Shown: piece after piece, positions 2,396-44,900 of the stretch
How the letters are laid out: each line of letters opens with the position of its first letter
Numbering within the stretch: position 1 is the stretch's first letter
Source: an uncultured virus (IMG/VR IMGVR_UViG_3300025896_000027)
Lineage: Duplodnaviria; Heunggongvirae; Uroviricota; Caudoviricetes; Schitoviridae
Length of the DNA stretch: 64,000 nucleotides
IMG/VR virus record: IMGVR_UViG_3300025896_000027
Direction: 5' to 3' (one strand)
Position numbers and translations under genes: made by a program
The notes under the pieces: generated by a model
What the model was told of the DNA's origin: nothing
Database searches by the model: none
What the model saw: only the letters and a program-made list of their open reading frames with translations

Positions 2396-3252
2396 TGGTT
2401 TCCTTGCGCCGGTTCCAGCATCTTCTCCTTGGCTTTATTGCAAAGCTTTCGGAGGGTTGCTTGATCGGCATTGTTGGGTAGGGTTGTTGGATGTGCCCAG
2501 TCAGGCCAGAAGATGTCCAGGTTGGCACCCAACTTCACAGTGGGATGTTGCAACTCAGGAAGCTCTTGCCATTGCATGGACTTGATCAGCTCACGGTTGG
2601 CCCATTCCACGACCTCCACGTCATCTCTGACAAGGATGTAGATTGCGTCATGGATCAGTGCTACTGGCTTGATGTCGTAGCGATACTTCGATGCCCAGAC
2701 CTTCTGCATGAACTCCACAGCAGCACGGTTGTTCAACAGGCCATAGGATTGGCCCAGTGCATTCCCAGCAGTACGTCCTTCAGCAGCAGCCGCATAAGGC
2801 ACGCTGGAGCTACCGAAGATCACTTGCTTGAGCATGGGTGTTCGTACCCTCAGACCGAAAGCCACTTCCACATAGCCGTCCTTGGATGCCTGTTGAAGAC
2901 GCATCTGTGTGTACTCATCAGACACCTTGTACAGCTCGTGGTAGTTGGCTTCAATGGCTTGGGACTTGTCCTGTGGCCATCCTAGGTTGCTCATCATCCC
3001 GTGGTAGGTGCCACCGTAGGTCAACAGGAAGGTGGGCGCCTTGGAATCTTGACGAAGCTCGGGATGTGTCTTTTTGATTGAGTTGATGGAATCAACTGTG
3101 TCTTCAATGTCAGGACACTGCTCCCTAAAGTAGCTGTATGCACGAAGACAGTGACCGTCATACCCAGGGGTCTGGCCAATCTCTTTGATGGTAACAGTGT
3201 CCTCCTTACGGATGACAACCGTTGATTTTTTCAAGGTTCCGAAGTGCTGCAT
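2392..3252 (-). CDS. DNA polymerase family A, C-terminal fragment
   Basis: GYDGHCLRAY, motif B RQDSKAPTFLLTYGG, motif C LIHDAIY. Confidence 0.93.
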   Translation of the reverse strand: MQHFGTLKKSTVVIRKEDTVTIKEIGQTPGYDGHCLRAYSYFREQCPDIEDTVDSINSIKKTHPELRQDSKAPTFLLTYGGTYHGMMSNLGWPQDKSQAIEANYHELYKVSDEYTQMRLQQASKDGYVEVAFGLRVRTPMLKQVIFGSSSVPYAAAAEGRTAGNALGQSYGLLNNRAAVEFMQKVWASKYRYDIKPVALIHDAIYILVRDDVEVVEWANRELIKSMQWQELPELQHPTVKLGANLDIFWPDWAHPTTLPNNADQATLRKLCNKAKEKMLEPAQGNQ

Positions 3253-6309: not shown

Positions 6310-7605
6310 TTACTTGCCGAAGTCCCCAGTCAAGAAGACTTGATGGCGAGCACGGGAGATGGCGACGTACAACATGCGAGCGATCTGATCGCCGGAGTTG
6401 CAACCACTGATGTCATCCAGGTCGATGTATACGCGGTCATAGGTTGAGCCTTGGCTCTTGTTGACCGTCTGTGCATACGCACCTCGGAGATCAATCCATT
6501 GGTTTTCGATCTCCTGGATGAGGGAGTACTCATTGGATGCTCTGGCTTGCTTCAGACGAGCATTTTTCGATGCCAGTGTCTTGGGCATGAATGCAGCTAT
6601 GGTCCCATCAAGATTGAACCAGTTTCCAGATACATCATTATGAATTACGTCTTCACTGATCGAACTGATCTGCACCAAGGCATCGGTCTTGATGCTCTTG
6701 TTGCCAATCTGGATGTAAGAGTTGCAGACAGCGTAGTCCCCTTCCTCAAAGTGAGGATCACCCTTGATCAAATTGCGAATGGCTTGGTTGTAGAAGACTA
6801 CTTTCTTGTTGGTCCAAGCCAGGAACTTGGAGTCCTTGTATCGCCAGTCAGGACGGGTGAACTCATCGGTGATGGCTTGGTCGAAGTCATCCCGATTCAT
6901 GTGCTTGACGTGGTGTCCGTCGAGCACGATGTTGGTTGGGAATTCACCTGTGTTGACCGTGTGACGGAACTTGGTAGACAGGTCGATGATGGGATTGCCT
7001 TCGGCCTGACGAACCACCGTGGTCAATGATGCTTCGAGAAAGCCTGCCTTGAACACAGGAGCATCGGTGGACTTCACAGGGGTGAGCTGTGCAGGATCTC
7101 CGATGAAGACGATCTTGCAGTCCTTGGTCATCTTGAAGATGTAGTCCAGGAGCTGCTTGTCTACATAGCTGGCTTCGTCGATGAAGAGCAGATAGCCTTG
7201 CTTGATGTCATTCTTGTTCCTGGGGATCAGGGTGGTCTTGCCAGAGTTGTAGTCCGTCTGCACACGCAAACCAAGGAATGAATGGATCGTTCCACAGGTA
7301 TGTCCTGTGATCAGAGCGAAGTTCTCTGCTGCCTTGTTGGTGGTGGCAGTCAGCGCAACCATGTACCCAGGAGTATCTGGATCCAACAGGAGTTGGGTCT
7401 TCAGGAAGTTGGGGAGCTGATCGAGAATGGTCTTGACCAGGGTGGACTTGCCACAACCAGAGTAGCCCGAGAGCACCATGACCTGTTCAACAGGATTGCA
7501 TAGGAATTGCTGGAAGGTTGCCAGTGCAGCTTCTTGGTCAGTAGTCAGGTCAATGGACGGTTCTTCTTTGACTTCAGGAATGTCTTCGATGGTTGCGGTG
7601 TTCAT
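6310..7605 (-). CDS. Dda/RecD-like SF1 DNA helicase
   Basis: Walker A GYSGCGKS, TIHSFL, Walker B IDEAS, GDPAQL, TVNKSQGST, LYVAISRAR. Confidence 0.93.
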   Translation of the reverse strand: MNTATIEDIPEVKEEPSIDLTTDQEAALATFQQFLCNPVEQVMVLSGYSGCGKSTLVKTILDQLPNFLKTQLLLDPDTPGYMVALTATTNKAAENFALITGHTCGTIHSFLGLRVQTDYNSGKTTLIPRNKNDIKQGYLLFIDEASYVDKQLLDYIFKMTKDCKIVFIGDPAQLTPVKSTDAPVFKAGFLEASLTTVVRQAEGNPIIDLSTKFRHTVNTGEFPTNIVLDGHHVKHMNRDDFDQAITDEFTRPDWRYKDSKFLAWTNKKVVFYNQAIRNLIKGDPHFEEGDYAVCNSYIQIGNKSIKTDALVQISSISEDVIHNDVSGNWFNLDGTIAAFMPKTLASKNARLKQARASNEYSLIQEIENQWIDLRGAYAQTVNKSQGSTYDRVYIDLDDISGCNSGDQIARMLYVAISRARHQVFLTGDFGK

Positions 7606-7608
7606 GGC

Positions 7609-8736
7609 TTAGATTTCGTAGTTGATGACCTTCCCGAAGGGAGGTACAAATCCTGGGTTGTTGTGGATGAACCAGAGCGTTTTGCTCTTGGCTTGCAATT
7701 GCGGGAAAAGGAAATCACCATCGCTGAAAACCATGAGCAACTGAGGCTTGTGGGTATTAGCCCATTCGATGACCTCATGGATCTGGGTACCACCACGACC
7801 TACGAAATGAACCTTGGACAGTTCATCGAAGGAACGCAGTTGATCCACTGCCTTGATCTTGGTATCGAACTGGATCAAGGTGATCTTCTTTGGCTTCATC
7901 ATCTTGAAGATGCCACCCACTTCAGAGACAAAGACCTTGAAGTCATGGTCACTGACGGAACCTGAGGTATCCACGGCAATGGTCAGATCGATGAGTGATT
8001 CACCGAACTGGCTTGGAAGAATGTGCTCAGGGAAGAAGCGACGATTGGGCTTTCGGAAGCTGTAGTCAGTCTTGGCATATGACTGCACATACTTGCGAAG
8101 GATGGTCTGCCAAGGCAGCTTGGGGTTCAGCAGGTTGTCTAGGAAGATCTCGATCTCACCTGGAATTGTTCCAACAGCATCACCAGCCATCTTCGATTGG
8201 ATCGAAGCACGGACGATGATGTCTTGGATCTTGTGCTGAGCTTCCTGAGGGTCACCAGGAGCCTCTAGGAGGTCGCCTTGCATTTGGTTGGTACCGCCGG
8301 AGCCATCATCCCCTTCAGACTCAGGGAGGAGCTTGTAGACCTGTTCCGTGGACATGCCTTTGAACTGGGGATCTTTCAGAACCCAGTTAGGCATGCTGTA
8401 GCCACGTTTCTGAAGCATCAGGTTGATGACATGATCGGCAGCTTCATTCCAACGCTTCTTGTCCCGGCTCTTCAAGCGAGCAGGATCCAGATGCAGTAAA
8501 GCCATGTGAAGGCTTTCATGTACCAGGACGAAGACACGTTCCTTGGGATCCAAGCTCAAGAAGAACCTGGGATTGATGAACATGGATTCACCATCCACAC
8601 CAGCAGTAGGAATGTCATCGTTCCACTTGAACTTCAAGCTGAAGCAAAGGGTGGTGAAGAAGACGGAATCTGGCTTGCTCATGAGAGCAATCTTGGCTTT
8701 GCTCAAAGCCTGATCGTGTGCGGTTTGGGTAGTCAT
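7609..8736 (-). CDS. HExxH metallopeptidase-like + vWA domain protein (N4 gp25-like, DUF2201 type)
   Basis: VLVHESLH, WNEAADHVIN, MIDAS DTSGSV, GRGGT, FSDG; GGAG RBS before ATG 8736. Confidence 0.88.
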   Translation of the reverse strand: MTTQTAHDQALSKAKIALMSKPDSVFFTTLCFSLKFKWNDDIPTAGVDGESMFINPRFFLSLDPKERVFVLVHESLHMALLHLDPARLKSRDKKRWNEAADHVINLMLQKRGYSMPNWVLKDPQFKGMSTEQVYKLLPESEGDDGSGGTNQMQGDLLEAPGDPQEAQHKIQDIIVRASIQSKMAGDAVGTIPGEIEIFLDNLLNPKLPWQTILRKYVQSYAKTDYSFRKPNRRFFPEHILPSQFGESLIDLTIAVDTSGSVSDHDFKVFVSEVGGIFKMMKPKKITLIQFDTKIKAVDQLRSFDELSKVHFVGRGGTQIHEVIEWANTHKPQLLMVFSDGDFLFPQLQAKSKTLWFIHNNPGFVPPFGKVINYEI

Positions 8737-8816
8737 AAGACTCCATTCTTGAAATAAAAATGGAGGCTTATAGCCCCCTGAGTTCTTGAACCACACGGCG
8801 CAGGAGGCGCCTGTGG

Positions 8817-9188
8817 TTACTTGGTTATCCTGCCAGTAGGTGATCCGTAGGTCACGATGCGACCGCCATCATAGATACCAGTTATATGAGTGGTCATTTC
8901 TGATTGGACTTCAGCAATCCACTTGGCAAAATCTACGCCCTTAAAACGATTATCGAATTCAAAGAATTCAGACTCATTCAACAGCAAAGCTTTGGTCTTA
9001 CGAACCTTCTCAATCTGAGCAGGAATCTCCTTCTGAAGTTTGATCAGTACATCTTTTGGGACATGACCAAGATCTTCATTGAAGGTTCTTCCTGGGTACC
9101 GCTTCATGCGATAGCCCAGGACATTCATGGCAGAAAGGATCTCAGTTTCTGAGTACTTCCTGATTTGTTTGACGAGTCCACTGCTCAT
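8817..9188 (-). CDS. hypothetical protein
   Basis: 123-aa ORF inserted between the ATPase and vWA genes. Confidence 0.65.
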   Translation of the reverse strand: MSSGLVKQIRKYSETEILSAMNVLGYRMKRYPGRTFNEDLGHVPKDVLIKLQKEIPAQIEKVRKTKALLLNESEFFEFDNRFKGVDFAKWIAEVQSEMTTHITGIYDGGRIVTYGSPTGRITK

Positions 9189-9997: not shown

Positions 9998-11011
9998 TCA
10001 GTACAGCTCGTTCGCGTTCTTGGCGATCCAGGCTTGCATGGTCGGCGTTGACATCAGTGCCTTGTTGCGACGAATGGCTTCACGCAAGCAAACCACTTGG
10101 AACTCCACAGGGAGACGGTTCACGTACTGCACCAGCTTGGCGATGTTGTCAGCATCTGCATGGTTGGCGATGGAACCAGTGATGGCGAACAGCACGCTTG
10201 GATCATTCGACACCATGGTACCCATGGGATCAGTCACGATCTCAGCAATGCTGGGCAGCGACTTGTAGATCTGCATGAAGGCCATGAGTTCCGTAGCCAC
10301 ACCTTCACTCAAGGCACCAGCAAGCATGGGCCTGCGTTCAGGCGAACTGTCTTCGGTGACCTTCAGAATTTGATCAGCAAACTTCCAGGTCCGAGGACAG
10401 GCATAGGTGCAGTCCGTGTGGTCTGGATTGAAGTTGTGCAGGAGGTCAGGACGGAAGCGAATGAAGGAACAGATCCGGTGATCGATGTTCACACTCGCTG
10501 CCCAGTCCAGCCATTCATCTTTGTCCACAGCGATCTCCAAGTGAACCAGACGAGATTGCAGAGCAGTGCTCATCGATTCCACGATGGCGTTGTCTGACTC
10601 CAGATTGCCTGCTGCCACCACAGCCACATTGGGATGCAACTTGTGGTTACCCACCATGCGATCCAGGATGATCTTGTATGCAGCGGCTTGGATACTCTTG
10701 GGTGCAGAGGTCAGCTCATCCAGTAACAGAAGCCAGCCGTTGTAGCCTTTCGGAATTTCATCCGACTCGATGGGGAAGGTTTCCATCGGCACGTAGCCAG
10801 CCTTGCTCCCTTGGATCTGAGGAAAGCCGAGCATGTCGGTTGGATCGCACTGAGCAAGGCGAAGGTCGATGACCTTCAAGCCAAAGTCAGCAGCGATCTT
10901 GTGAATGATGTCGGACTTACCAACACCAGGACTGCCCTTCACCAAGGGAACCAGCTTGGCTCGGATGAGCTGGGTAATGATGGTGATGGCAGCAGAGATC
11001 TTCACTTGCAT
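9998..11011 (-). CDS. AAA+ ATPase, MoxR-like (N4 gp24-like)
   Basis: Walker A GSPGVGKS, DLRLAQCDPTD, Walker B LLLDE, AAGN, STALQSR, CPRTW. Confidence 0.9.
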   Translation of the reverse strand: MQVKISAAITIITQLIRAKLVPLVKGSPGVGKSDIIHKIAADFGLKVIDLRLAQCDPTDMLGFPQIQGSKAGYVPMETFPIESDEIPKGYNGWLLLLDELTSAPKSIQAAAYKIILDRMVGNHKLHPNVAVVAAGNLESDNAIVESMSTALQSRLVHLEIAVDKDEWLDWAASVNIDHRICSFIRFRPDLLHNFNPDHTDCTYACPRTWKFADQILKVTEDSSPERRPMLAGALSEGVATELMAFMQIYKSLPSIAEIVTDPMGTMVSNDPSVLFAITGSIANHADADNIAKLVQYVNRLPVEFQVVCLREAIRRNKALMSTPTMQAWIAKNANELY

Positions 11012-11024
11012 GATGGGCACTTTC

Positions 11025-11150
11025 TTACCAGAATTTGTTGATGAAATGGATGGCGACGTAAATCAAGCCACTAAGCATTGACAGAACGAACACCGCCGAA
11101 ATGACGATGATCAGCTCGATCAAGGTAAAGCCGCTTTGATGTTTACGCAT
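11025..11150 (-). CDS. 41-aa prepilin-like microprotein (class III signal peptide plus hydrophobic helix only)
   Basis: MRKHQSG|FTLIELIIVISAVFVLSMLSGLIYVAIHFINKFW; GAAAG RBS; stop is just upstream of the ATPase start. Confidence 0.8.
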   Translation of the reverse strand: MRKHQSGFTLIELIIVISAVFVLSMLSGLIYVAIHFINKFW

Positions 11151-11190
11151 GGTTTTTCTTTCGATGAAGGGTAGGAACTTGGGGGCGGGT

Positions 11191-11421
11191 TTAGTTACGC
11201 AGGCCAGCTTTGCGAGCTTCCTTTTTGGCACGGTTGGCGAGCTTCTTGTTCACTTCTTCCAGCTTGACTTCACCGACCTTGCGGCCTTCGGTGTCACGAA
11301 TGAAGTGCTTGCCATGACGCAGGCTCATAGCTTCGTTGTAGACCGACCAGGCAGGCGTGGTGGGCTTCATCAGTTGGACGCGGTTGGCGTTGCGAGCGAG
11401 AGTGGTTGCAGAGGTGGTCAT
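11191..11421 (-). CDS. basic hypothetical protein
   Basis: 76-aa Lys/Arg-rich ORF with TGAAAG RBS. Confidence 0.7.
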   Translation of the reverse strand: MTTSATTLARNANRVQLMKPTTPAWSVYNEAMSLRHGKHFIRDTEGRKVGEVKLEEVNKKLANRAKKEARKAGLRN

Positions 11422-11902: not shown

Positions 11903-13966
11903 TCAGAATTTGACATTGAATGTCTTGTTGATCTTGGTGCCTTGGACCTTGACGGTCACAGTGTCACCACGGGTGGATGAGAAGCCAAGACCACTGAGTT
12001 GGTCCTCAATGGGTTGGCACTTGGTCTTGTCTCCCAAGATTTCGAAGACCTTGCGGTGCTTCTCAAGGTTGGAATTCAAGAACTCGTTGTAGATGCCACG
12101 AGTTGGCTCTGGGTTCTTGCAACCTTCCAGGATGAAGAAGTGGTGCTTGTTGCCCACGGTGTTGTCATCCCAAAAGTTCGGGCTGAACATGAGGGTGTTG
12201 ACCTTCACAAATTGCTCGGTGTTGATACCCCAAACATTCTGTGAACTGACTGAACATGGCAGATGGTGTTTGATCGTGAAAACACCTTTCTTCAGGTTCA
12301 CTGTTGCAACAGTCACCCATTCCTTTTGCTTCAATGGCTTGATGTATTCGTATTCGAACACTTGACCTGCAAATTCGATCTCAGCCTTGAAACCAGCTTC
12401 GGTTGGTGGACGATTGCTCCAGTTGTGGACCTTGCAGATGTAATCTCCTTCAGGCATGCGAGCCAGATCGGGGAACGTGATGTTCTCTACTGGCACATAG
12501 CCCACAGGTGCGGGTTGCACATAGTCCACGTCTTGAACACCTCCTGATGCCATATCAGATCGATTGTTCCAGCCAACCCGCTTGGAGTTGCCATAGATGT
12601 CGTTGACAGGGTTGCCTTCCGAGATCGTGGAACCGGGCATGAAGACATGCAGGTCCATCAGAGAAGCATTGCGCTTGTCATAGTTCCAGGAGTGAGAGAA
12701 ACGGAAGACTCCATCGACACGACCACCACGGCCCTGAACTGCCTTGCGGATTTCAGAATCAGCGATGTTGCCGTTGTAACTCCAGGCGAAGTCGTTGGCC
12801 CACTTGAAGAGTTTGTCTTCGCTCTCATGAACCGGAGCCGTCAGACTCATGAAGTTGCTTTGGTGAGCGTTCTTCACCAGAAGTTCCATCGACACAGCAT
12901 TGGGTACGACACCCTTCATGAAGTCATCGATGCTGATGTCTTCTGCCTGGTCCACCTTGATTGTGGTCTTGGCTGAAGCCATGAGGACATCAGCAATGCC
13001 ACCCTTCATCTTGCCCTTGACCGAGTTGTCCACCCAGAGGACGTTGTTGACGTTCACGTCACTGATCGTGGCAAAGCGACGTTCCAGGGCTGCTTCCAGA
13101 TCCAGTTCCTTGATGGTCTTCATCGCATCTTCGACCATGCGAGGCGTGATCAGAGCCGTAGGACGCTTGTAGTTGGCGGGTGCCACCTTGGCCTCAAACG
13201 AGCGCACAGCGGCTTCCAGGGGCACGCCTGAGGACAGATCCTGGACCAGGGTACCGATGACGGTGTTGCGGAAGCGTGAAGCAGGCGAGTCAGCATTGGC
13301 CCAGGCAAAGACATTCTTGCTGGCTTCATCCTTCAGAGCCAGGTATGCCTTCTGGGCTTTTTGGAAAGCCACGATAGCAGCCTTGTGCTCTTCACCACGG
13401 TACAGCGAGTTGCTGGCAATCAGGTCCAGCACATCGGTCAGAGCCTGAGGCAACAGCTCTTCCAAGCCACGTTGGAAGACTTGAACGGTGGTAGCGTAGG
13501 AGCCGCACACTTCACCGGCTTTGGTGCTCTGGTGCTTGGAAGCAACCTTGCCATGGAAGTGTTTCCACTTCTTGACCAAGCCATCTTCCTGAAGCTGCTT
13601 GGTTTCCTCGGCACCGTAGGTGCCTTCCTGGGTCCGGAACAGGCTGGTGATGGGGTGACCAACCACCAGAGCATCCAGGGCCTTGGCGACCTCGCTGTAC
13701 GGGTACTCAGCACCCTTCACGTTCCAGACCGACTCGGCCTTGCCATTGATGATGGCCACCACATTGCCGATGTTCCGGATGAAGTTCTTGCAGCAAGTGC
13801 AATCGTGCTCGGTGTTGGTCTTGTAGATCGGGTTGGTGCCTTCAGGGAAAGCAGCCAAGTAGGCTTCCGAGAGTTCATGACCGTCAACGGTGACGAACAG
13901 CTCATGCTTGGACAGCTCAAGGAAGCGAGCATGGATGAGTTTGGAGAAGGTGCTGAATTGAGGCAT
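11903..13966 (-). CDS. large conserved phage protein (687 aa) with HDCxCC motif
   Basis: Start MPQFSTF after AGGA; EHDCTCCKNFIR; FSHSWN...DLH and DVDY...VENI segment (DUF2135/YfaP-like); strongly biased codon usage. Confidence 0.85.
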   Translation of the reverse strand: MPQFSTFSKLIHARFLELSKHELFVTVDGHELSEAYLAAFPEGTNPIYKTNTEHDCTCCKNFIRNIGNVVAIINGKAESVWNVKGAEYPYSEVAKALDALVVGHPITSLFRTQEGTYGAEETKQLQEDGLVKKWKHFHGKVASKHQSTKAGEVCGSYATTVQVFQRGLEELLPQALTDVLDLIASNSLYRGEEHKAAIVAFQKAQKAYLALKDEASKNVFAWANADSPASRFRNTVIGTLVQDLSSGVPLEAAVRSFEAKVAPANYKRPTALITPRMVEDAMKTIKELDLEAALERRFATISDVNVNNVLWVDNSVKGKMKGGIADVLMASAKTTIKVDQAEDISIDDFMKGVVPNAVSMELLVKNAHQSNFMSLTAPVHESEDKLFKWANDFAWSYNGNIADSEIRKAVQGRGGRVDGVFRFSHSWNYDKRNASLMDLHVFMPGSTISEGNPVNDIYGNSKRVGWNNRSDMASGGVQDVDYVQPAPVGYVPVENITFPDLARMPEGDYICKVHNWSNRPPTEAGFKAEIEFAGQVFEYEYIKPLKQKEWVTVATVNLKKGVFTIKHHLPCSVSSQNVWGINTEQFVKVNTLMFSPNFWDDNTVGNKHHFFILEGCKNPEPTRGIYNEFLNSNLEKHRKVFEILGDKTKCQPIEDQLSGLGFSSTRGDTVTVKVQGTKINKTFNVKF

Positions 13967-14309
13967 TGAATTTCCTAACGAATGGAGGGACGGAAAAGCG
14001 CTCTGAGCGTCTTTTCTGATTGGTTTGATGGGTAACCATCTCCAGGTGCTCTTTACGCCAGCAGAGATGGTCGATTTGCTTGGTACCAGGGATGAAGCCA
14101 AAGAAGTGGGTGTAAGCCACCAGATGGACTGCAACGGTTTGCCCGTTGAGAGACATGCGACCGTAGCCACCACCACGGCCAGTTCCTGAGGTAGGGCCAG
14201 TCCATTGGAAACATGGACTGTCTATCCCGTCGATCTTGAAACCAGTGTTGATGACTTCAGTACGTTCCTGGATACGGTCAATGATGGATTGGCGACGATC
14301 AAAGGTCAT
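13917..14309 (-). CDS. HNH nuclease-like protein (N4 gp22-like), apparently with an internal deletion
   Basis: PCFQWTG...GYGRM...VAVHLVAY...IDHLC-WRK-EHLEMVTHQTN. Confidence 0.75.
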   Translation of the reverse strand: MTFDRRQSIIDRIQERTEVINTGFKIDGIDSPCFQWTGPTSGTGRGGGYGRMSLNGQTVAVHLVAYTHFFGFIPGTKQIDHLCWRKEHLEMVTHQTNQKRRSERFSVPPFVRKFNASIQHLLQTHPCSLP

Positions 14310-35922: not shown

Positions 35923-38900
35923 ATGGCAGATTTTGACCTCGACAGCTATTTCGCCAAGCGTATTGGTTCAGTCCAACCTGAGCCAGTCAATTCCCTGATT
36001 CCCAATCCTGTGAATGAAATTCCACAGGTCGATAAGATCGCGGAATTGATGCGTGCATCAGCTCAAAAGCTGGATGGCTTGGAGAAGTACAAAGCCCGTG
36101 TCGCTGCCCAGGAAAAAGCCAATGAGGCTTCTCTGGTGGGTCAGTTGGGCCTGGATCCTGAAGGTACCGTGGGTACAGGTGTGAACCTCGTCGCTCGTGG
36201 CCTGGCTGGTGCTTCGAAGAATGTGATTGGACAGCTCCTGGCTGTGCCATCGAGCGTCAAAGCCTCCATTCATGAACTTGGCTTGGATGAGGAAGATCGT
36301 CAGGCCTACGTTCGCCATACTCAAGGTGTTGCTACTCCTGAGGACATGGCACGTCTGAGCTTCAAGGGGCAAGCCCGAGATGCCAGCACCAAGCTGGAGA
36401 TGTTCCAAAAGGCTGACCAGAGCACGGAGATCGCCAAGGACATTCGTGACACGTTCAACATCGACTACCTCACCCACAAAGCCAACACCGACCAGCTCAA
36501 TGCTGACCTGGGTGAAGGTTTCCAAGGGAACTGGGATCAAGTCAAGGAAGGCTGGAGCACTCTGACCGAAGGCAAGGGTACGTCCAAGGGTTTATCCGAG
36601 CTGGCTTCCGGTCTGGGTGGTTTGATCTACAAGGCAGGCGAAGCCGGGGCAACCAACCCTCTGGCCGTCACCGAGTACATCGCTGAGAACCTGCCTCAGA
36701 TGTTCATGGGCGGTGCTGGGAAGATGGGTGCTGCCCTTCTGATGGAAACCAATGCCGGTTACGCCTACGAAAACTACGAGAAGGGCATTGCCCAGTACCG
36801 GGAAAAGAACAACGGGGCTTTCCCTCCTGAGGCAGAACGTCAGAAGATGGCTGCATACGCTGCCTCTCTGGCCCTGGCCGAGCAGTTGGGGGATATCACA
36901 GCCATCAAGGGCATGTTCCCGGCCAAGGCTGTGAAGGGTGTTGCCGAGGCTGCTGATGCAGTGACCACTGGTTTCAAGAAGGGCTTGCTGAATACCCTCA
37001 ATGCGGGTGCCAAGTCCCTGGCCGTGGAGTCTGGTACCGAAGGCTGGCAGACCTTTGCCGAGGGCGAGGCAACGCTCAAGCCAGCAACCCCTGAAGAGAT
37101 CTACACGGGTGCTTCCATCGGCGGCCTCACGGGTGGCTCGATGTCAGGAGGTGCTCGTGGTGTGGCCGAGCTGCTGAAGGCTACTCCTGAGCATGCCAAG
37201 CTCAAGAACCTGGATGCTGACAAAGCCAAGGCTCTGGATGAAGCTATTGCCTCAGGTGATGTGACGGGCTACACCAATACCAAGTCTAAGGACTATGCTC
37301 CTGAGCGTGCGGTTGCTGCACTGTTCGGCAACAGTCAACTGGACACCACGACACCGGAAGCGAAGCAAGAGAATCTTGCTAAAGCGAGCAAGATCATTGC
37401 TGATCTGGAAGAACGTAAGACAGGAATGCAGACAAGCTTGGATGAGTTGTCTCCTACTGCTGTTGAAGGATACAAAGCTCAGCTTGAAGTGATCAAGGAG
37501 AAGCAGAAGCAAGTAGATCCTGCTAATACTCAAGAAGTAGCTGAGTTGTCCAGTACTGCTTCCTTCTATGAAGGACTGATCAAGGATGCAGGCTCTAAGT
37601 TGCCTAAGCAACTTGAAGCATCCATGTCCAAGCTGGACACTCAGTTGGAAGAGTCACGGACTAGCCTGGAACAGTTGAAGCTTTTGCTCCAACCCAAGGA
37701 TGTCGAAGTGGAAGCCCTGGTTCAGGAAATCCAAGAGGCACCAAGCAAAGACGCCCTGGCGGCTGGTTCGGCTCCGCGAGCCGAAGCAGCAGTGGGCGTC
37801 ATCAACCTGTCCATGCAGACCCCAGATCGATTGGATCCAACGACAGCTACCGAGCTGGCCGACAACCAAGAAAACGCTCTGACGGCCCCTCAGAGGGCCT
37901 ACCTGCGTGCCTTCTCTGCAGCCCGGATTGCCGAGAACATCCTGAAGGACATGGGTCAGGTTTCTCAGGAAATCTTCTCAGGCTCTCCTACAGGGAAGAA
38001 GGGTACCAAGTACGTCGGCATTGCCCAGTACCGGGCACGCATGGCAGAAGCCATGAGCACCCTTAATCGTGAAGCGGCTGATCGCTTCCTAGGTGGCCTG
38101 ACCAAGTTCATGTCTGATCATCAAGCCAAGCTTTCTGCGGCTGAGCAAGCATTGGCCAAGGGTCTTGGGAACCAGATCGTCAAGGCGAACGGTGAATGGA
38201 TTGTTAGTCCAGAACGTCTTTCGGACGCGAAGATCAAAGAAGGCGGGGGCTTGACCGTCAACTCTCCTGGCCTGGTGGCCAACATCCGTGCTGAGACGGA
38301 TGCCCTGGTCAAAGCACAGGCCGAGATGGCTGCTGCCTATGATTTGACGTTCAAGAAGGAACCTGAAAAATCGGTGGTACAGTCCGCTCCTGCTGAGAAA
38401 AAAGCAGAGCCTGTAAAAAATACATCTAGTGAAAAAATCCTAGAGGTAAAACCACGTCTACAGGAAGAACCTGTAGACTCTCCGCTGGAAGCTCCCCCCT
38501 CCAAGGTGGAAGAAGAAAAGACGGTAAAAGTTACCGAAAATCTTGCTATCGAGAAGGCACTGAGTCAAGTGAATCGTGCGTACCGCCGAATCACCCGTGA
38601 GAACCCACGTAGCCTATGGTCTGCCCTCAAGCACAGCCTCACAACCAGTGATTTGAATGAGATCTACGGTAGTGATTGGCGCAAGCGTTATACCTTGCTG
38701 AAAGGCAATCCAGGCAGGTCTTTGGTTGACGTTGTTGCGAATGGTTCATTGGACGAATTCCTACCACACGCGATGCGTGTTGGGATCAATCAAGACAATG
38801 AACAAGATGCAACAGAATTCATCAGAGAAAAATTGCGTAGCGGTAACTACCTTACCGAAGAGACGAATAACCTCTTGGCACAGGTATCCCTGACCATCCA

Positions 38901-41900
38901 AGAGTTGGAACAAGCCCTATCTATCGAGGACATTCAAGATGCCATCACAACCATCGAAGCCGAAATCACCGCCCAAGAAGCCAATTCTTCTAAAGAAGTT
39001 ACAACAACTCCCATTGAAAAATCAACTCAAAGTGCTGAAGAATCTTCTGGAAATCAAACTCAAGAAGTAGAGGCGGAAGCAGAAGAGTCTGTAGAAGCTA
39101 CAACACCGGTTGTGGAGTCTGGATCGCTTTCTGCACTCCAGAACAAGTCGCCTGAGGGCACGGCCTATCACTTGGCCAACCTACTTGGAACCTATTTCAA
39201 GCAAGCTCTCAATCGTGATGGCAACACCTCTGTACGTCCACTTGTTGCTGCCAAAGACTTCATCAGTTCCTTGGTCAACAAGACGACCACGGTGGGTGAA
39301 TTCCTGGCTGATAAGACACTGAATGATCAGCAGAAATCTGCTGTCCGTAGCTTCGTCAAGCATGCTCGTGAATGGCAAGCACGAATCAAAGCTAATCTGC
39401 CTGCCCTAGCTCCCCAGGAATATCGCCATCAGGACATGATGCAATTCCTGTTGGAAGAGCAGTCTGATGGGTCCGTAGACGTGGCTGAGAACGTCAAGAC
39501 GGCTATGGCTTATGCCGCCTATAGCTGGGCAGCAGAACAAGCCTCAGCCCCTCGTCGATTGACAGACAAAGCCATCAATGCAGTGCTCGGGCGCCAGAAA
39601 GGTACCCGTATTTCAGCCATGGCCTACAAGCTGCTGGGTACAGCAGGCACCTATCAACATAACGTGGTGGATTCTCTCGGTGGGAAAGTGTTGGATGCTC
39701 TTGGCTTGGAAGCCAATAAAGACACGCCACAGAACGTGATCGCTCAGTTGCGTGCTGCTCTGGGGGGACACACTTTGAAGCTGCTTGAAGATGAAGGCTT
39801 GGCCACCCGTACCACGATCAGTGGCTGGGACATTCAAGCTCTACGTGAAGAAGGCTTGTCTGAAAATCAAGTGGAGCGTTTACGAGCACAGTCTCAAGGT
39901 GTCAATCACCATCTCGCACATACGTTCTTCGCTGTTGCCCGTGATGGTAAAGGCAAGCTGATGGAGAAGGTTACGGCCATCTCTGAAGCCAATAAAGGTA
40001 CTAAGGCAGTTCTCAGCAAGTTGTTCCAAGTGGAATCTGGTCATAAAGTTCCTTCCTTGGAGCCAGTGACGCAGGTACAGAACACCACTTCAGGCACCAA
40101 CCAAGGTCTACCCACAGAGCTGAAAAAAATCCTTTTGGCGAACCAAGCACGCCCTCGTGTATTGCGTAAGGACAAGCTCGCTTTGTTTGATGGCTTCAAT
40201 GATGCAGATCGCAACGCCATGCTAGGCGTGGTTGAAATCGATGATGCAACTACCCACATCGTCAACCGCTCTGGTACCCAAGCCAAGAATGAAGGTTTGA
40301 TCCGCGAGTACGATCTCTTTATCGAGTTCGTTGGGGAATACCTTGCTACCAGTGACAAGGGCCTGGACACGCAGTTCTTTCTGGAATTTTCAGCCTGGAA
40401 GCAACAACGTGTTGGTATTGCCACCAATGTTGCCAATCCTCAAGCCAGCAAGATTGTTCGCTTTTTGATCGGCTCACCTGACTGGACAACCAAGATCGAG
40501 TCCACCAATGAAGAGCTAATGAATAGCTTCTGGCTTCGGGTTGCTGAAGGCTTGAGCATCAAGACAGAGCGAGCTGACAATGCTGTCTCTATTGAAGAGG
40601 TGCAAGCTCAATTGGAAGCATCTGTGTATGCCGATGCCATCCAAGCACTTCGCAAGAAGGTTGTCCGTAACGAGGCATTAACTACTGAAGAGCAATCGAG
40701 TATTGTGGCTGCTGTGGTTAAAGGCGGTGCGAACCTACATACCTTGGATGCGTTGATCGGGGTAGCCCGTCAACAAGAAGCCAAGGCAGGAAACGAAGGC
40801 AACTACACCTTCACCGTCGAGATGATGGGTGAAGTCGATGGTGTGGCCAACGGCACCATGCTGAACCATGTCCTCATGGGTGCTGGACCTTCGGTCGCTG
40901 ACCTGAACACGATGCTTAATCAAGGTGGCTTTTATCAGGAAGGCAGTGATCACACACAGTACAACCAATGGCGGGGTGCAGAAGGTAACCTGGACATCTA
41001 CGAATCTACTGGGCGTAAGGTCTTCAACGCAGTCAAACAATTCGTCGCTGAGTCCACTTCCGATGTAGGTCAGAAGGTCAATTCAATCTGGGCCATTGCA
41101 GGCAACATCTACGATGAAAGTACGGATAGCGTTACCAAGGATGGTCGTAATCTCGTTAAAGACGGGATGAATCCATTGGCTTTCGGATCCTCTCTGTCGA
41201 GTGTCATCAATGGCATGTCAGAGGGCTTCCTGAGCAGTGTTTATGGTGGCTTTGAGAAGCTGGCCAAGAACCCTGCCACAACTCAAGTTCAGGTCGATGC
41301 CTACGTGACCCACATCAATACCTTGGTAAAAGGTACGGGAGAGCTTTTGCCTGTTGGTCGTTCTTTGGCTTGGTACATGGGTAACTCCATGAAGCCATCC
41401 ACCGAGATAGCTCTCAAGACAGCTTTTGCAAGCACGGTAGGTAGCGTAACCAGTAATGTTTTGGGAGAAGAATTCTCCCTGTTCATCGCTCGTCGTAATG
41501 CATTGAACAAGACAGCTCAAGCAACCTTTGGTCTGTACGATGCGGTCTATCAAGGGATGCGTGAATCTCTCATTGAAGAGCTGATGGCTGAAGGTAAGTT
41601 GCCTGTGAATGCCAAAGGCAAACGTATTGGTGATTTGTCTAAAGCACAAGAAGCCGAGCTTGAGAAGCGCCTGCAAGGCTTGGCCCCGAACATCCGCACT
41701 GCCATGTCCATGAAAGACAGGGGCACCCGTACCGGCCTTAGGATGGCTAAAACTAAGCGGAAGCAAAACCAAGATCCCATTTACACCAACGTCACGAAAT
41801 ACGGTACGCCTCTTTCTACGGGAGATAAGTCAGCCAAGCTGAAGGGCCAGTCTACTCAGATGGAGAGCCCCGGTGTTGCCATGGGTTCGGCTACCACCCA

Positions 41901-44900
41901 CTCCCTGGACAGTGCAGTCTCTCACCGGACACAGGCTGCTCTGGATGTATTGAACATTCATGATGCTGTGGGTTCTGGTGTGGCTGGCTTGAAGGAAGCC
42001 GCCCGCTTGATGAATAAGAACACTTGGGAAGTGTTGAGGGACTATTCACCTCTTGGAGAGGTGTACACCTCATTGGCTTCGGTGGTTCAAGGCGTGGCTC
42101 AAATGATGGAAAACGGGGAGCTGTCTGTTCAGGCTACTCAACGAGTACAAGCCTTCCTAAACAAGCAGCGAGAAGCCTCCGAAGCCAGCAGCAATAAAGA
42201 AGCTCTAACGATTCTCTTGGAGAACGCTAAGTACATTGCCTATCAAGCTGACAGCATGAAGCTGGGCACCATGGCAACCTGGATCTCGGTTGACCAATAC
42301 GCTTACCAAGGTGGTAACTATGAGGTCACTGCTGCTGATCGTGAGGCGGTAGTCAAGAAAATGGAAGCCTTGTCACAGGACGTGTCAGCAGAGGTTCTTG
42401 ATGCCATCAAAACAATGGCTATCTTGGTTAAGAAGTCGCCTGAATCGGGGGTTGTAGTGACTCCGGAAGTATCCTCGGATATGACTGAATCTGTGGATAC
42501 GGTTGAGGATGAAAACACTCCTGATAACAGTGATACTTTGGATCCTGAACTCAAGGACATGGATGTCCTTGGCTTCCCTGCTGTGCAGGCGATGCAGCTC
42601 CTTGAGCATGCAAGCCAAGACACGACCCTCAGTGAGGATCTGCGGACACAGGTAGATGAAGTACTCATCCAGATGATGACGGCCAGCCAGAGCCTCAAGG
42701 AAGCTGTCTTGAAGGTACTCAAGCCTGCTGATGCTGCTGCCATGGTGCAACTGCTCAGCAAGCGATTCAGTGCCTTGCCTGCCAATCAATGGGGTGAGCA
42801 AGGCCAGTCAGCTATTCAGAGTGATACTGCCTTGGTGGAGTTCTTTGAGAGCAATGCGTATGTCACGGCAGATCGTGTCATTCAGATGCTGTATCAGACA
42901 ATCAGCAAAGGAGCGAACAACAACATCAAGGAATTCAACTTGAAGTTGTTGAAGGTTCTGTTCAAGACGGTGAACCCCAAGATGGTGATTCGCTATGTCA
43001 CTCCTGCCACTGAGCCAAGCATGGTTCTGGAAGGTGCTGACAAGTCACGCGGTTGGTATGTGAGCAAGGGTGGTAAGTCGGAGATCTATGTTCTGTCCCC
43101 TATCTATAAGCACTCAGGCTTGACCGTTGAAACGCTGATTCATGAGCTGGTCCACGCTGCTATTTCCCAGAGCATTGAGGCTGCTACGGGTGAGGCTAAG
43201 GAGTTGGTTGATGAATTGGGTACTCTGCTAGAGCGTGCCCGTGTCCATGTAAACCAAGCTGGTTTGAAAGGCTATGGGGCTGCCCTCGCCAACGTTCAAG
43301 AGCTGGTTGCATGGGGCATGAGCAACCTGGATTTCCAGAAGAACGTGCTCAATCAGATCACGGTGGAAACCAAGACCGGAAGCAACACCTTGGTATCTGG
43401 GATGAAGAAGTTCATCGATACGATGGTGGGCTTGCTGTTCCGTGGTTCCAAGAAGAGCGAGCAACAGGTTGCTTCCAATGGTATGTCAGTACTGATTGCC
43501 AATGTTTCAGGTTTGTTTGCTGAGGCTGCGAAGTCCAATACTGCTGTGGATATGGTCCTCAACCAAGAGAGCAGGTCTCCCTTGGATGATGTGATCAACT
43601 ACAGCACTACGGACATCTATACCGCATTGCGTCAAGCATCTGGGACTCCCCTGGATAGCTCGTTTGATGAACACCTCCGAGGTGTCCTGGGCAACATCGT
43701 TGCCAAGCTGCACGGTCCCTTTGATGACTTCAAGAAGCAAGTCATGAAGACCCAAGCTCTTGGCCCTATGGATATCTGGCTCAAGGCACTGGACACAGGC
43801 GTTGCACCCTTTGCTTCACAGGCATTGGCTTCTGGCTTCAAGATTCCTGCTCAAGTGGCGTTTGTCATGGAGCAAGTCGAGGTCACGATCAAGGCTGCTT
43901 TGGAGAACAACGAGGCATACACCAAGACGGCGTACAAGGAACTCTCTGATCTGTACACCGAGGTGTCTGCACGCCTGCAACCGAAGGACTTCCATGATGG
44001 TCCCTGGGCTACTGCAACGGCCAATGAGCAAGCCATTGCTACTGAGCTGTACAACTTCATCTTCAAGGTGGAGCAAACCAATGGTAAGAAGTCAGACTAC
44101 CTGGCTCGCTTTGCTGCACTGGGTCTGACGCATCCTCACCTCAATAAGCTGCTTCAAGTTCCTACTGCAGTGAAGGTAGCCGGTCCTGCTAAAACGTTCG
44201 CAGAACGTCTGCAGTCCTTGTTTGAAAAGGTGCTGGGTTTCTTCAGCAACAAGATCGCTCATACCTATGAGGGTCAGCCTGCTGATGAAAAACTGTTGAG
44301 CATGGTGGGTCAACTGGTGGATATCGAAGCCAAGCATCGCCAACAGATTGCCAGTCGTGCTGCTGAGTCCAACTACGTTGCTCCTGTCGAAGAAGCGGTC
44401 AAGGCTGCTGCTGAAGCTGTGCGTAGTAAGGTCGGGCAATTGGCCAGCAACCCCTTCTTGCGTAACCACAAGAGCGGGTATGTTCGCGGTGCTTCTGCTG
44501 TGGTGAGTACCTTGGCCAATGATCGGGTTGAGGCATTCATGGAAGGCCTTGCTCAGTTCCGTAACGAGAACTTCAAAGGCAAGTTGGGCATTGCTGCTGG
44601 CTTGCTCAATGATATGAAAGGCCCGGTTCAGGATTTCCTGAAGCTGCTTCTGGAATCCAAGTCCAACGAACGCACCCGCAAGAGCATCATCACCAACGCC
44701 GCCAAAGGGGCCTTGGCTGCATTTGTTGAGGGCGGCAAGGCCCTGACACCTAAAGCGAAGGCAAGCCTCTCTGCGGTCTTCCTACGCACAGGTGCCCATG
44801 CTCTGGTGGACCACTTCACCATGGCTGACCTGGAGCAACTGGTTTCGGATAAGGCACGTCGTACCAAGGAGATTCAGGATTGGGAAGCCAAGCTTGCTGG

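Follow-up and report, generated by a model that had tools for sequence, protein, structure and literature searches.

Bacteria rely on type IV pili and type II secretion to move, to take up DNA and to export virulence factors, and phages use this machinery for adsorption; phage proteins that act on pili have been described before. PfsE of the Pf filamentous phages is a 30-aa inner-membrane peptide that binds PilC, stops pilus extension and confers superinfection exclusion, as described in the accessible text of that report (Schmidt et al. 2022, mBio, PMC8764522). Prophage-encoded P-FimU mimics enter the pilus and block tip-binding phages, according to the part of the paper available to us (Sztanko et al. 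2026, Cell Rep, PMC12952977). The same portion of that paper describes truncated PilA proteins of ~60 aa in six virulent Pseudomonas phages, and offers two hypotheses for them, entry into the pilus or a block of its assembly. Headless phage pilins, as an idea, are already in print in this source. Our original prediction had stated that the known phage inhibitors of pili do not work by mimicking pilin; the prophage FimU mimics, which enter the pilus, make that statement outdated. The novelty here lies in a defined family of phage peptides with a fixed mature length of 34 residues, an invariant C-terminal tail, and kinship with peptides that carry no prepilin signal.

The member of this family considered here is encoded by an uncultured virus (IMG/VR record IMGVR_UViG_3300025896_000027), in a stretch of 64,000 nucleotides that was analysed as a whole and is called the window below. 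Its gene, which we call the microprotein gene, occupies 11025..11150 on the minus strand, with 41 codons and a stop (11025-11027), as established from the ORF list, the sequence, and matches to the N_methyl and TIGR02532 models; the ORF starts with ATG and translates as MRKHQSGFTLIELIIVISAVFVLSMLSGLIYVAIHFINKFW, 41 aa. The original prediction had described a 41-aa ORF at this position, with its own GAAAG ribosome-binding site, between a basic 76-aa gene and an AAA ATPase gene. The ORF is present exactly as described and its two neighbours are confirmed by the ORF list. The start signal is supported as well, with GAAAG found at 11158..11162 (minus strand), 7 nt upstream of the ATG. Of the 50 long ORFs in the window, 14 have the same motif within 20 nt upstream, whereas 1.6% of random 17-mers contain it, and the classic AGGAG is found upstream of only three of the 50; GAAAG appears to be the usual translation start signal of this phage. 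It often reads TGAAAG and lies ~6-8 nt before the start codon, for example in the minus-strand ORFs starting at 9188, 11893, 14831 and 15422. A longer reading of the microprotein, 68 aa from a GTG at 11231, was rejected because it overlaps the upstream gene and because leaders in the family have 6-7 residues.

The microprotein gene is placed among tightly packed replication-phase genes, far from the late genes of the window. The basic 76-aa ORF upstream (11191-11421, minus strand, from the ORF list) is 40 nt away and found no match in the Pfam and PHROG scans. Downstream lies the gene for an AAA_5/MoxR-like ATPase (9998-11020, minus strand; Pfam AAA_5, E 3.4e-5), whose GTG start at 11020 follows the microprotein stop by 4 nt. 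An alternative ATG for the ATPase, at 11011, is preceded at a distance of 8 nt by a GAAAG that directly follows the microprotein stop. To judge from the sequence, this ATG is more likely to be the ATPase start than the GTG given in the ORF list. The MoxR-like ATPase is also found ~1.2 kb from a protein that combines a DUF2201_N metallopeptidase with a DUF2201 VWA-like part (7609-8796, minus strand; Pfam E 1.9e-40 and 1.7e-24), the two being separated by three small ORFs of no known family.

The class III (prepilin-type) signal that the original prediction had read in the N-terminus is supported by both curated models, each of which is passed above its cut-off: Pfam N_methyl (PF07963) gives 29.3 bits against 21.2 (E 5.7e-7), and NCBIfam TIGR02532 gives 23.3 bits against 16.3. 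On the minus strand, the gene opens with a short, basic leader, MRKHQSG, whose last residue is Gly-1 (codons 1-7, 11130..11150). The HMM matches then place FTLIEL, that is Phe+1, Thr+2, Glu+5 and Leu+6 of the predicted mature peptide, at codons 8-13 (11112..11129); FTLIELIIVISAVFVLSMLSGLI has a hydrophobic residue (Phe) at +1, Glu at +5 and then ~20 hydrophobic residues. A variable hydrophobic helix middle, delimited by natural variants and by the AlphaFold2 helix, covers codons 14-30 (11061..11111), and the protein ends in a tail, YVAIHFINKFW, that is conserved in the alignment of relatives (codons 31-41, 11028..11060). AlphaFold2, run on a 66-row alignment, returned a single helix over residues 10-40 with a mean pLDDT of 93. 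This helix and the length of 41 aa bear out the claim that the protein has no globular head: it stops at residue 41, and the next gene begins 4 nt on. Frameshifted remains of a pilin downstream are excluded too, since with the ATPase gene 4 nt after the microprotein stop no such remnant can follow.

A family profile was built from 19 members and searched against 1.84 billion cluster representatives at E <= 0.001. It matched 846 of them, nearly all ~40 aa long (best E 4e-14), and because about half of the profile members are of the prepilin type this set is biased towards that type. Short homologues, which the original prediction had suggested looking for, thus exist, and the microprotein is no singleton. 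The original prediction had missed the most conserved part of the protein, which is the C-terminal tail Y-x3-H-F-x2-K-[F/Y]-W-stop, to which the YVAIHFINKFW and stop of the microprotein conform. Among the best 150 of the 846 matches, 145 end in H-x3-K-x-W, and in these relatives Tyr-11 (counted from the end) is found in 127, His-7 in 145, Phe-6 in 144, Lys-3 in 145 and the final Trp in 145. As the matched stretch reaches the last residue in 145 of these best 150, there is no longer, headed form among them. The window itself holds one copy of the tail motif, with 0 expected in shuffles. Tyr31, His35 and Lys39 are spaced i, i+4, i+8 in the sequence and in the AlphaFold2 helix, which puts them on one helix face.

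The signal is conserved in register with the tail. Gly-1, a hydrophobic +1 and Thr+2 stand exactly 34 residues from the C-terminus in 101 of 142 top matches, and Glu+5, the conservation of which is known from pilin mutagenesis to be unable to tell an assembled from an only processed protein, is present in 97 of those 101. Among 107 prepilin-type relatives, 97 have a mature part of exactly 34 residues; the leader, measurable in 97 of the 107, has six residues in 56 and seven in 21. Gln occupies position -2 in 79/107, and Lys or Arg is found just before Gly likewise in 79/107. With identities below 50% between any two representatives, the conservation of the signal reflects strong selection and not recent descent. 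Neither Pfam nor PHROGs holds a model for the tail (the window protein and 25 members were scanned), and an ESM Atlas search returned generic N_methyl clusters alone, with scores of 0.77-0.78. We found the tail family nowhere described in the literature, which is weak evidence because the motif is not searchable as words.

Gly-1, Phe+1, Thr+2 and an in-membrane Glu+5, kept at a fixed distance from the tail, suggest that the host peptidase, and probably the pilin-handling machinery, recognise the peptide. For this reason we favour, with a probability of roughly 40%, the reading that a pilin stalk of 34 residues, matured by a host peptidase, competes with or poisons the assembly of the type IV pilus or of type II secretion, the tail being the damaging contact. 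As to cleavage, topology, target and benefit, we infer the following course of events. The microprotein would be made in the pre-lysis part of the infection and would insert into the inner membrane with its basic leader in the cytoplasm, where the host prepilin peptidase (of the PilD/GspO type) would cut after Gly7 and methylate Phe8. The product would be a helix of 34 residues, that is, a pilin stalk without its head. Because Phe1, Thr2 and Glu5 are kept, this stub could be mistaken for a pilin by the assembly platform of the type IV pilus or of type II secretion, and would then compete with real subunits or poison the growing fibre, the Y-x3-HF-x2-K-F-W end making the harmful contact at the periplasmic face of the membrane. 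Pili or secretion would be lost early in infection, with the exclusion of pilus-dependent rivals, or host takeover, as the outcome.

The tail was also sampled on its own in IMG/VR, with a DNA pattern for the tail plus stop codon; at least 120 stretches gave, after de-duplication, 101 distinct peptides, of which ~5 are chance matches. The prepilin type accounts for only 15 of the 101, and 86 are without the signal. These plain-type members are single-helix peptides of 25-60 aa with unrelated N-termini. When 66 prepilin-type members were aligned with 36 plain-type members, hhalign gave 98.9% (E 2.3e-17) over 31 columns, which are residues 11-41 of the window protein; on this alignment the two types are homologous. 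Some relatives resemble decayed signals, with Ser or Ala at -1, or with Lys or Asp at +5. As the plain-type majority shares the tail, it is the tail, rather than the signal, that stays constant across the wider family; the prepilin signal marks a large and very uniform subfamily. Carriers in the tail sample span 24% to 66% GC, a range that implies very diverse hosts; the carriers of prepilin-type and plain-type members do not differ significantly in GC (medians 0.48 vs 0.40, p = 0.059).

Prepilin-less homologues with the same tail mean that the active end of the peptide may bear no resemblance to a pilin, and their existence, together with that of decayed signals, suggests that the tail is able to work without a prepilin peptidase. 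The main rival to the pilin-stalk reading, possible if somewhat doubtful, is that the tail is the effector and binds, through its Tyr-His-Lys face and terminal Phe-Trp, some widespread envelope component unrelated to pili, such as a transporter, a PDZ protein or membrane protease, or a route of DNA entry. The prepilin signal would then be just one of several exchangeable means of inserting, trimming or positioning the helix. The 86 of 101 peptides without a signal speak for this, as do the hhalign match between the two types, the presence of His, Lys and the final Trp in 145/145 with the stop always right after Trp, the common helix face of Tyr31, His35 and Lys39, and the spread of the carriers in GC and host. 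Such an effector, however, gives no account of the retention, in ~100 divergent lineages, of Gly-1, Phe+1, Thr+2 and, within the membrane, the charged Glu+5, all at a constant spacing from the tail. We consider it unlikely, too, that the tail is a widespread phage 'warhead', an aromatic C-terminus tethered to the membrane which hits one conserved envelope component from interchangeable anchors, the prepilin form being matured by the host peptidase and routed by the pilin pathway to the pilus or secretion platform; if true, the microprotein would be more than a truncated pilin, namely a membrane effector of modular build that the host activates.

Three unrelated phages among 50,697 isolate records searched with tblastn each encode a full-length look-alike (37-42 aa), and all three peptides end in HF[IV]xK[FY]W and a stop. 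In the T5-like Aeromonas phage vB_AdhS_TS3, a 37-aa member at 7483-7596 of the record (1498-1611 of the locus), 7.5 kb from the left end, is unannotated and fills a gap of 174 nt between two annotated genes; in a T4-like Aeromonas phage the member is annotated as hypothetical and lies among tRNA genes; and Pseudoalteromonas phage XG4 has a member with Ser at -1. Two of the isolate genomes are annotated, and in one of them the member has been passed over. Against the same 50,697 records, a consensus-like query of the prepilin type retrieved only the two Aeromonas phages, and two plain-type queries had no match, but BLAST is weak on short hydrophobic queries, so that these outcomes are no measure of rarity. 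Five carrier records were scanned, those of the three isolates and of two jumbo UViGs that are complete or nearly so. In each of them N_methyl matched nothing but the microprotein, and Peptidase_A24 had no match, so any processing would have to be carried out by the host.

Another proposal is that the peptide does nothing beyond engaging the host enzyme, as a substrate or slow-release pseudo-substrate that occupies the prepilin peptidase and leaves host pilins and pseudopilins unprocessed, the stub itself never entering a fibre. The cleavage-site consensus is perfect, the Ser-1 variant of phage XG4 might bind uncut, and the tightly packed replication-phase operon may permit high output. Yet a simple competitor needs neither a strict, distant tail nor an exact length of 34 residues, and the plain-type homologues could not act in this way, which makes the proposal an improbable one in our judgement.

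The surroundings of the family were surveyed in viral contigs by taking the first 150 of 208 listed neighbour ORFs, minus seven at two loci of chance matches (L034 and L040), which leaves 143 ORFs at 37 loci. PHROG matches assign 18 of the 143 to DNA/RNA metabolism, eight to other enzymes, two to packaging, two to connector or tail and one to morons; a further 15 fall in PHROGs of unknown function and 97 have no PHROG match. None of the 143 matches a lysis PHROG, and no neighbour recurs across the 37 loci. The window, where the neighbours are the ATPase and hypothetical middle genes, shows no placement in a holin or lysis cassette. This non-lysis, DNA-metabolism neighbourhood fits a gene for takeover or exclusion. 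A viroporin- or holin-like peptide, which would form a small oligomeric channel and depolarise the membrane or time lysis, could well be short and single-helical with a conserved His and aromatic residues, as the microprotein is; with 0/143 neighbour ORFs of a lysis family and the window gene standing among replication-phase genes, far from the late genes, we regard this as very unlikely. That the ORF arose by chance, or is what a dead full-length pilin gene has left behind, for which its small size and nothing else can be said, is refuted by the 846 related cluster representatives, its own start motif, protein-level motifs kept across 24-66% GC, the 4 nt to the next gene and the lack of a headed, longer form among the best 150 matches. 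The microprotein gene is genuine and conserved, is borne by phages and has almost escaped annotation.

Members of the family are frequent in viral contigs and, though present, scarce in cellular assemblies. In IMG/VR the tail pattern marked 167 stretches, 31 of which were confirmed. The cellular scan covered one genome for each of 185,579 prokaryote species, where the DNA pattern applied directly gave 77 matches, 55 of them with a true stop and 15 being short hydrophobic ORFs that end in the tail. A reading of the family as absent from cellular genomes, drawn from 27 stretches of which 0 were confirmed by an over-strict procedure, was rejected on account of these 15 real-looking members. The context of the 13 cellular loci that were inspected is mostly that of prophages or mobile elements. 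A Paraburkholderia isolate has a 40-aa prepilin-type copy ~1 kb downstream of a CI-like S24 repressor gene and on the same strand, at a locus that also has a divergent Cro/CII-like gene and is, by its gene content, a prophage immunity or early-left region. In this prophage (locus positions 3001-3245), another single-helix ORF, of 41 aa (3120-3245), lies immediately upstream of the member and is likewise downstream of the CI-like repressor gene and on the same strand. Other cellular copies adjoin an integrase, an ArdC-like protein, RadC, or RtcB together with a cell-wall hydrolase. Two copies have an apparently chromosomal context, both of them in metagenome-assembled genomes. In a contig of an Uhrbacteria genome of this kind (~2900-3036), a prepilin-type member with a mature part of 34 residues is placed between two class II aminoacyl-tRNA synthetase genes and scpA; this member, from the candidate phyla radiation, may be a cellular copy or may come from a mis-binned contig.

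The phage that carries the microprotein gene is an N4-like phage. Its closest DNA matches lie with N4-like phages that infect Pseudomonas, Stenotrophomonas and Xanthomonas, among them Zuri, Pokken, Piffle and PB119. The virion RNA polymerase, a marker of N4-like phages, has ~3,400 aa in phage DEV, as given in the accessible text of its description (PMC11445570), and the window has an ORF of 3,724 codons at 35923-47097, which by its size is a candidate virion RNA polymerase. The ATPase of the window is 48% identical to the gp42 ATPase of Zuri and belongs to a conserved block shared with that phage, in which homologues of a 757-aa protein, a 133-aa protein and the ATPase are found. Zuri has two unrelated genes in place of the 76-aa ORF and the microprotein, which puts the microprotein gene in a variable slot. 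The 757-aa protein (11903-14176, minus strand) has no Pfam match and is 45% identical to Zuri gp38; it is also conserved in the jumbo Pseudomonas phages Lu11 and HRDY3 and in an EBPR siphovirus. A search of IMG/VR for loci syntenic with the ATPase block of the window found none, and near-identical DNA is present in wastewater, freshwater and soil metagenomes of 15 studies. The receptors reported for N4 and its named relatives, in the portions of the literature available to us, are LPS, a glycan or an outer-membrane protein, and nothing in these portions connects pili, as a receptor, with this phage or with the isolates in which the family occurs, which counts against the pilin-stalk reading.

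Contigs of four public runs cover the microprotein gene, and none has an indel in it. Ten differences are listed within the ORF, and since the list holds the best-supported differences only (51 more are unlisted) it gives a pattern, not a rate: all ten are non-synonymous and all fall in codons 15-32, nine of them in the variable helix middle and the tenth, V32A, in the tail, with none in the leader and FTLIEL part and none in the last nine residues. In the same listing, the ATPase stretch has 10 synonymous and six non-synonymous differences. Amino-acid changes between near-identical phages concentrate in the helix middle (11055-11107), which could be due to relaxed constraint or to diversifying selection. 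One contig of 713 nt from a metatranscriptome library spans 10593-11305, including the microprotein gene; as DNA carry-over is possible in an RNA library, this is only a weak hint of transcription.

If the reading of the microprotein as a host-matured pilin stalk is true, this 34-residue peptide would be the smallest known tool to shut down pili or secretion from inside the membrane, and would allow pilin recognition by the platform to be probed cleanly. A tail shared by two types of anchor is a natural experiment on which half of the peptide acts, and the tail kinship of prepilin-type and prepilin-less peptides makes the question of which end does the work directly testable. The 846 clusters at 50% identity, nearly unannotated as they are, represent conserved phage biology hidden below the size limits of gene callers.

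With type IV pilin-like proteins (N_methyl, TIGR02532) the microprotein has in common the leader, Gly-1, Phe+1, Glu+5 and the hydrophobic N-terminal helix; these proteins, however, carry a head domain, which the microprotein wholly lacks. With 34 mature residues it is, to our knowledge, shorter than any known pilin, including the small Flp/Tad and Geobacter pilins. Flp/Tad (type IVc) pilins have a Gly/x4-Glu-Tyr processing motif and a longer leader, and the microprotein has Leu at +6 and a leader of seven residues. PfsE resembles the microprotein as a tiny inner-membrane phage peptide with its N-terminus inside and a conserved aromatic cluster, but, as far as its published account was available to us, it has no prepilin signal, bears a mid-helix YAWGW motif that is absent from the 41-aa microprotein, and has no sequence relation to it; PfsE is an analogue and not a relative. 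P-FimU, in the available part of its description, is a phage protein that host machinery takes for a pilin and that excludes other phages, as is proposed for the microprotein, yet P-FimU has the full length of a minor pilin and masks the pilus tip without abolishing pilus function, whereas the microprotein has no head domain.

As for the truncated PilA proteins, the matches of the microprotein to phrog_10597 and phrog_13280 cover only residues 3-26, so that no kinship is seen beyond the prepilin N-terminus; phrog_10597 (59 positions), which may be the profile of the KPP10 ORF132 group, matches at residues 3-23 only (E 0.015). The KPP10 ORF132 group (Nankokuvirus and relatives) is like the microprotein in being encoded by virulent phages and in having a short basic leader, Gly-1, FTL-E and one helix without a head. 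ORF132 differs, however, in its 59 aa and its long hydrophilic tail, without the Y-x3-HF-x2-K-F-W end, from a family whose members have 40-41 aa and a fixed mature part of 34 residues, and this hydrophilic tail without HF-x2-KFW marks the KPP10 ORF132 group as a family separate from that of the microprotein.
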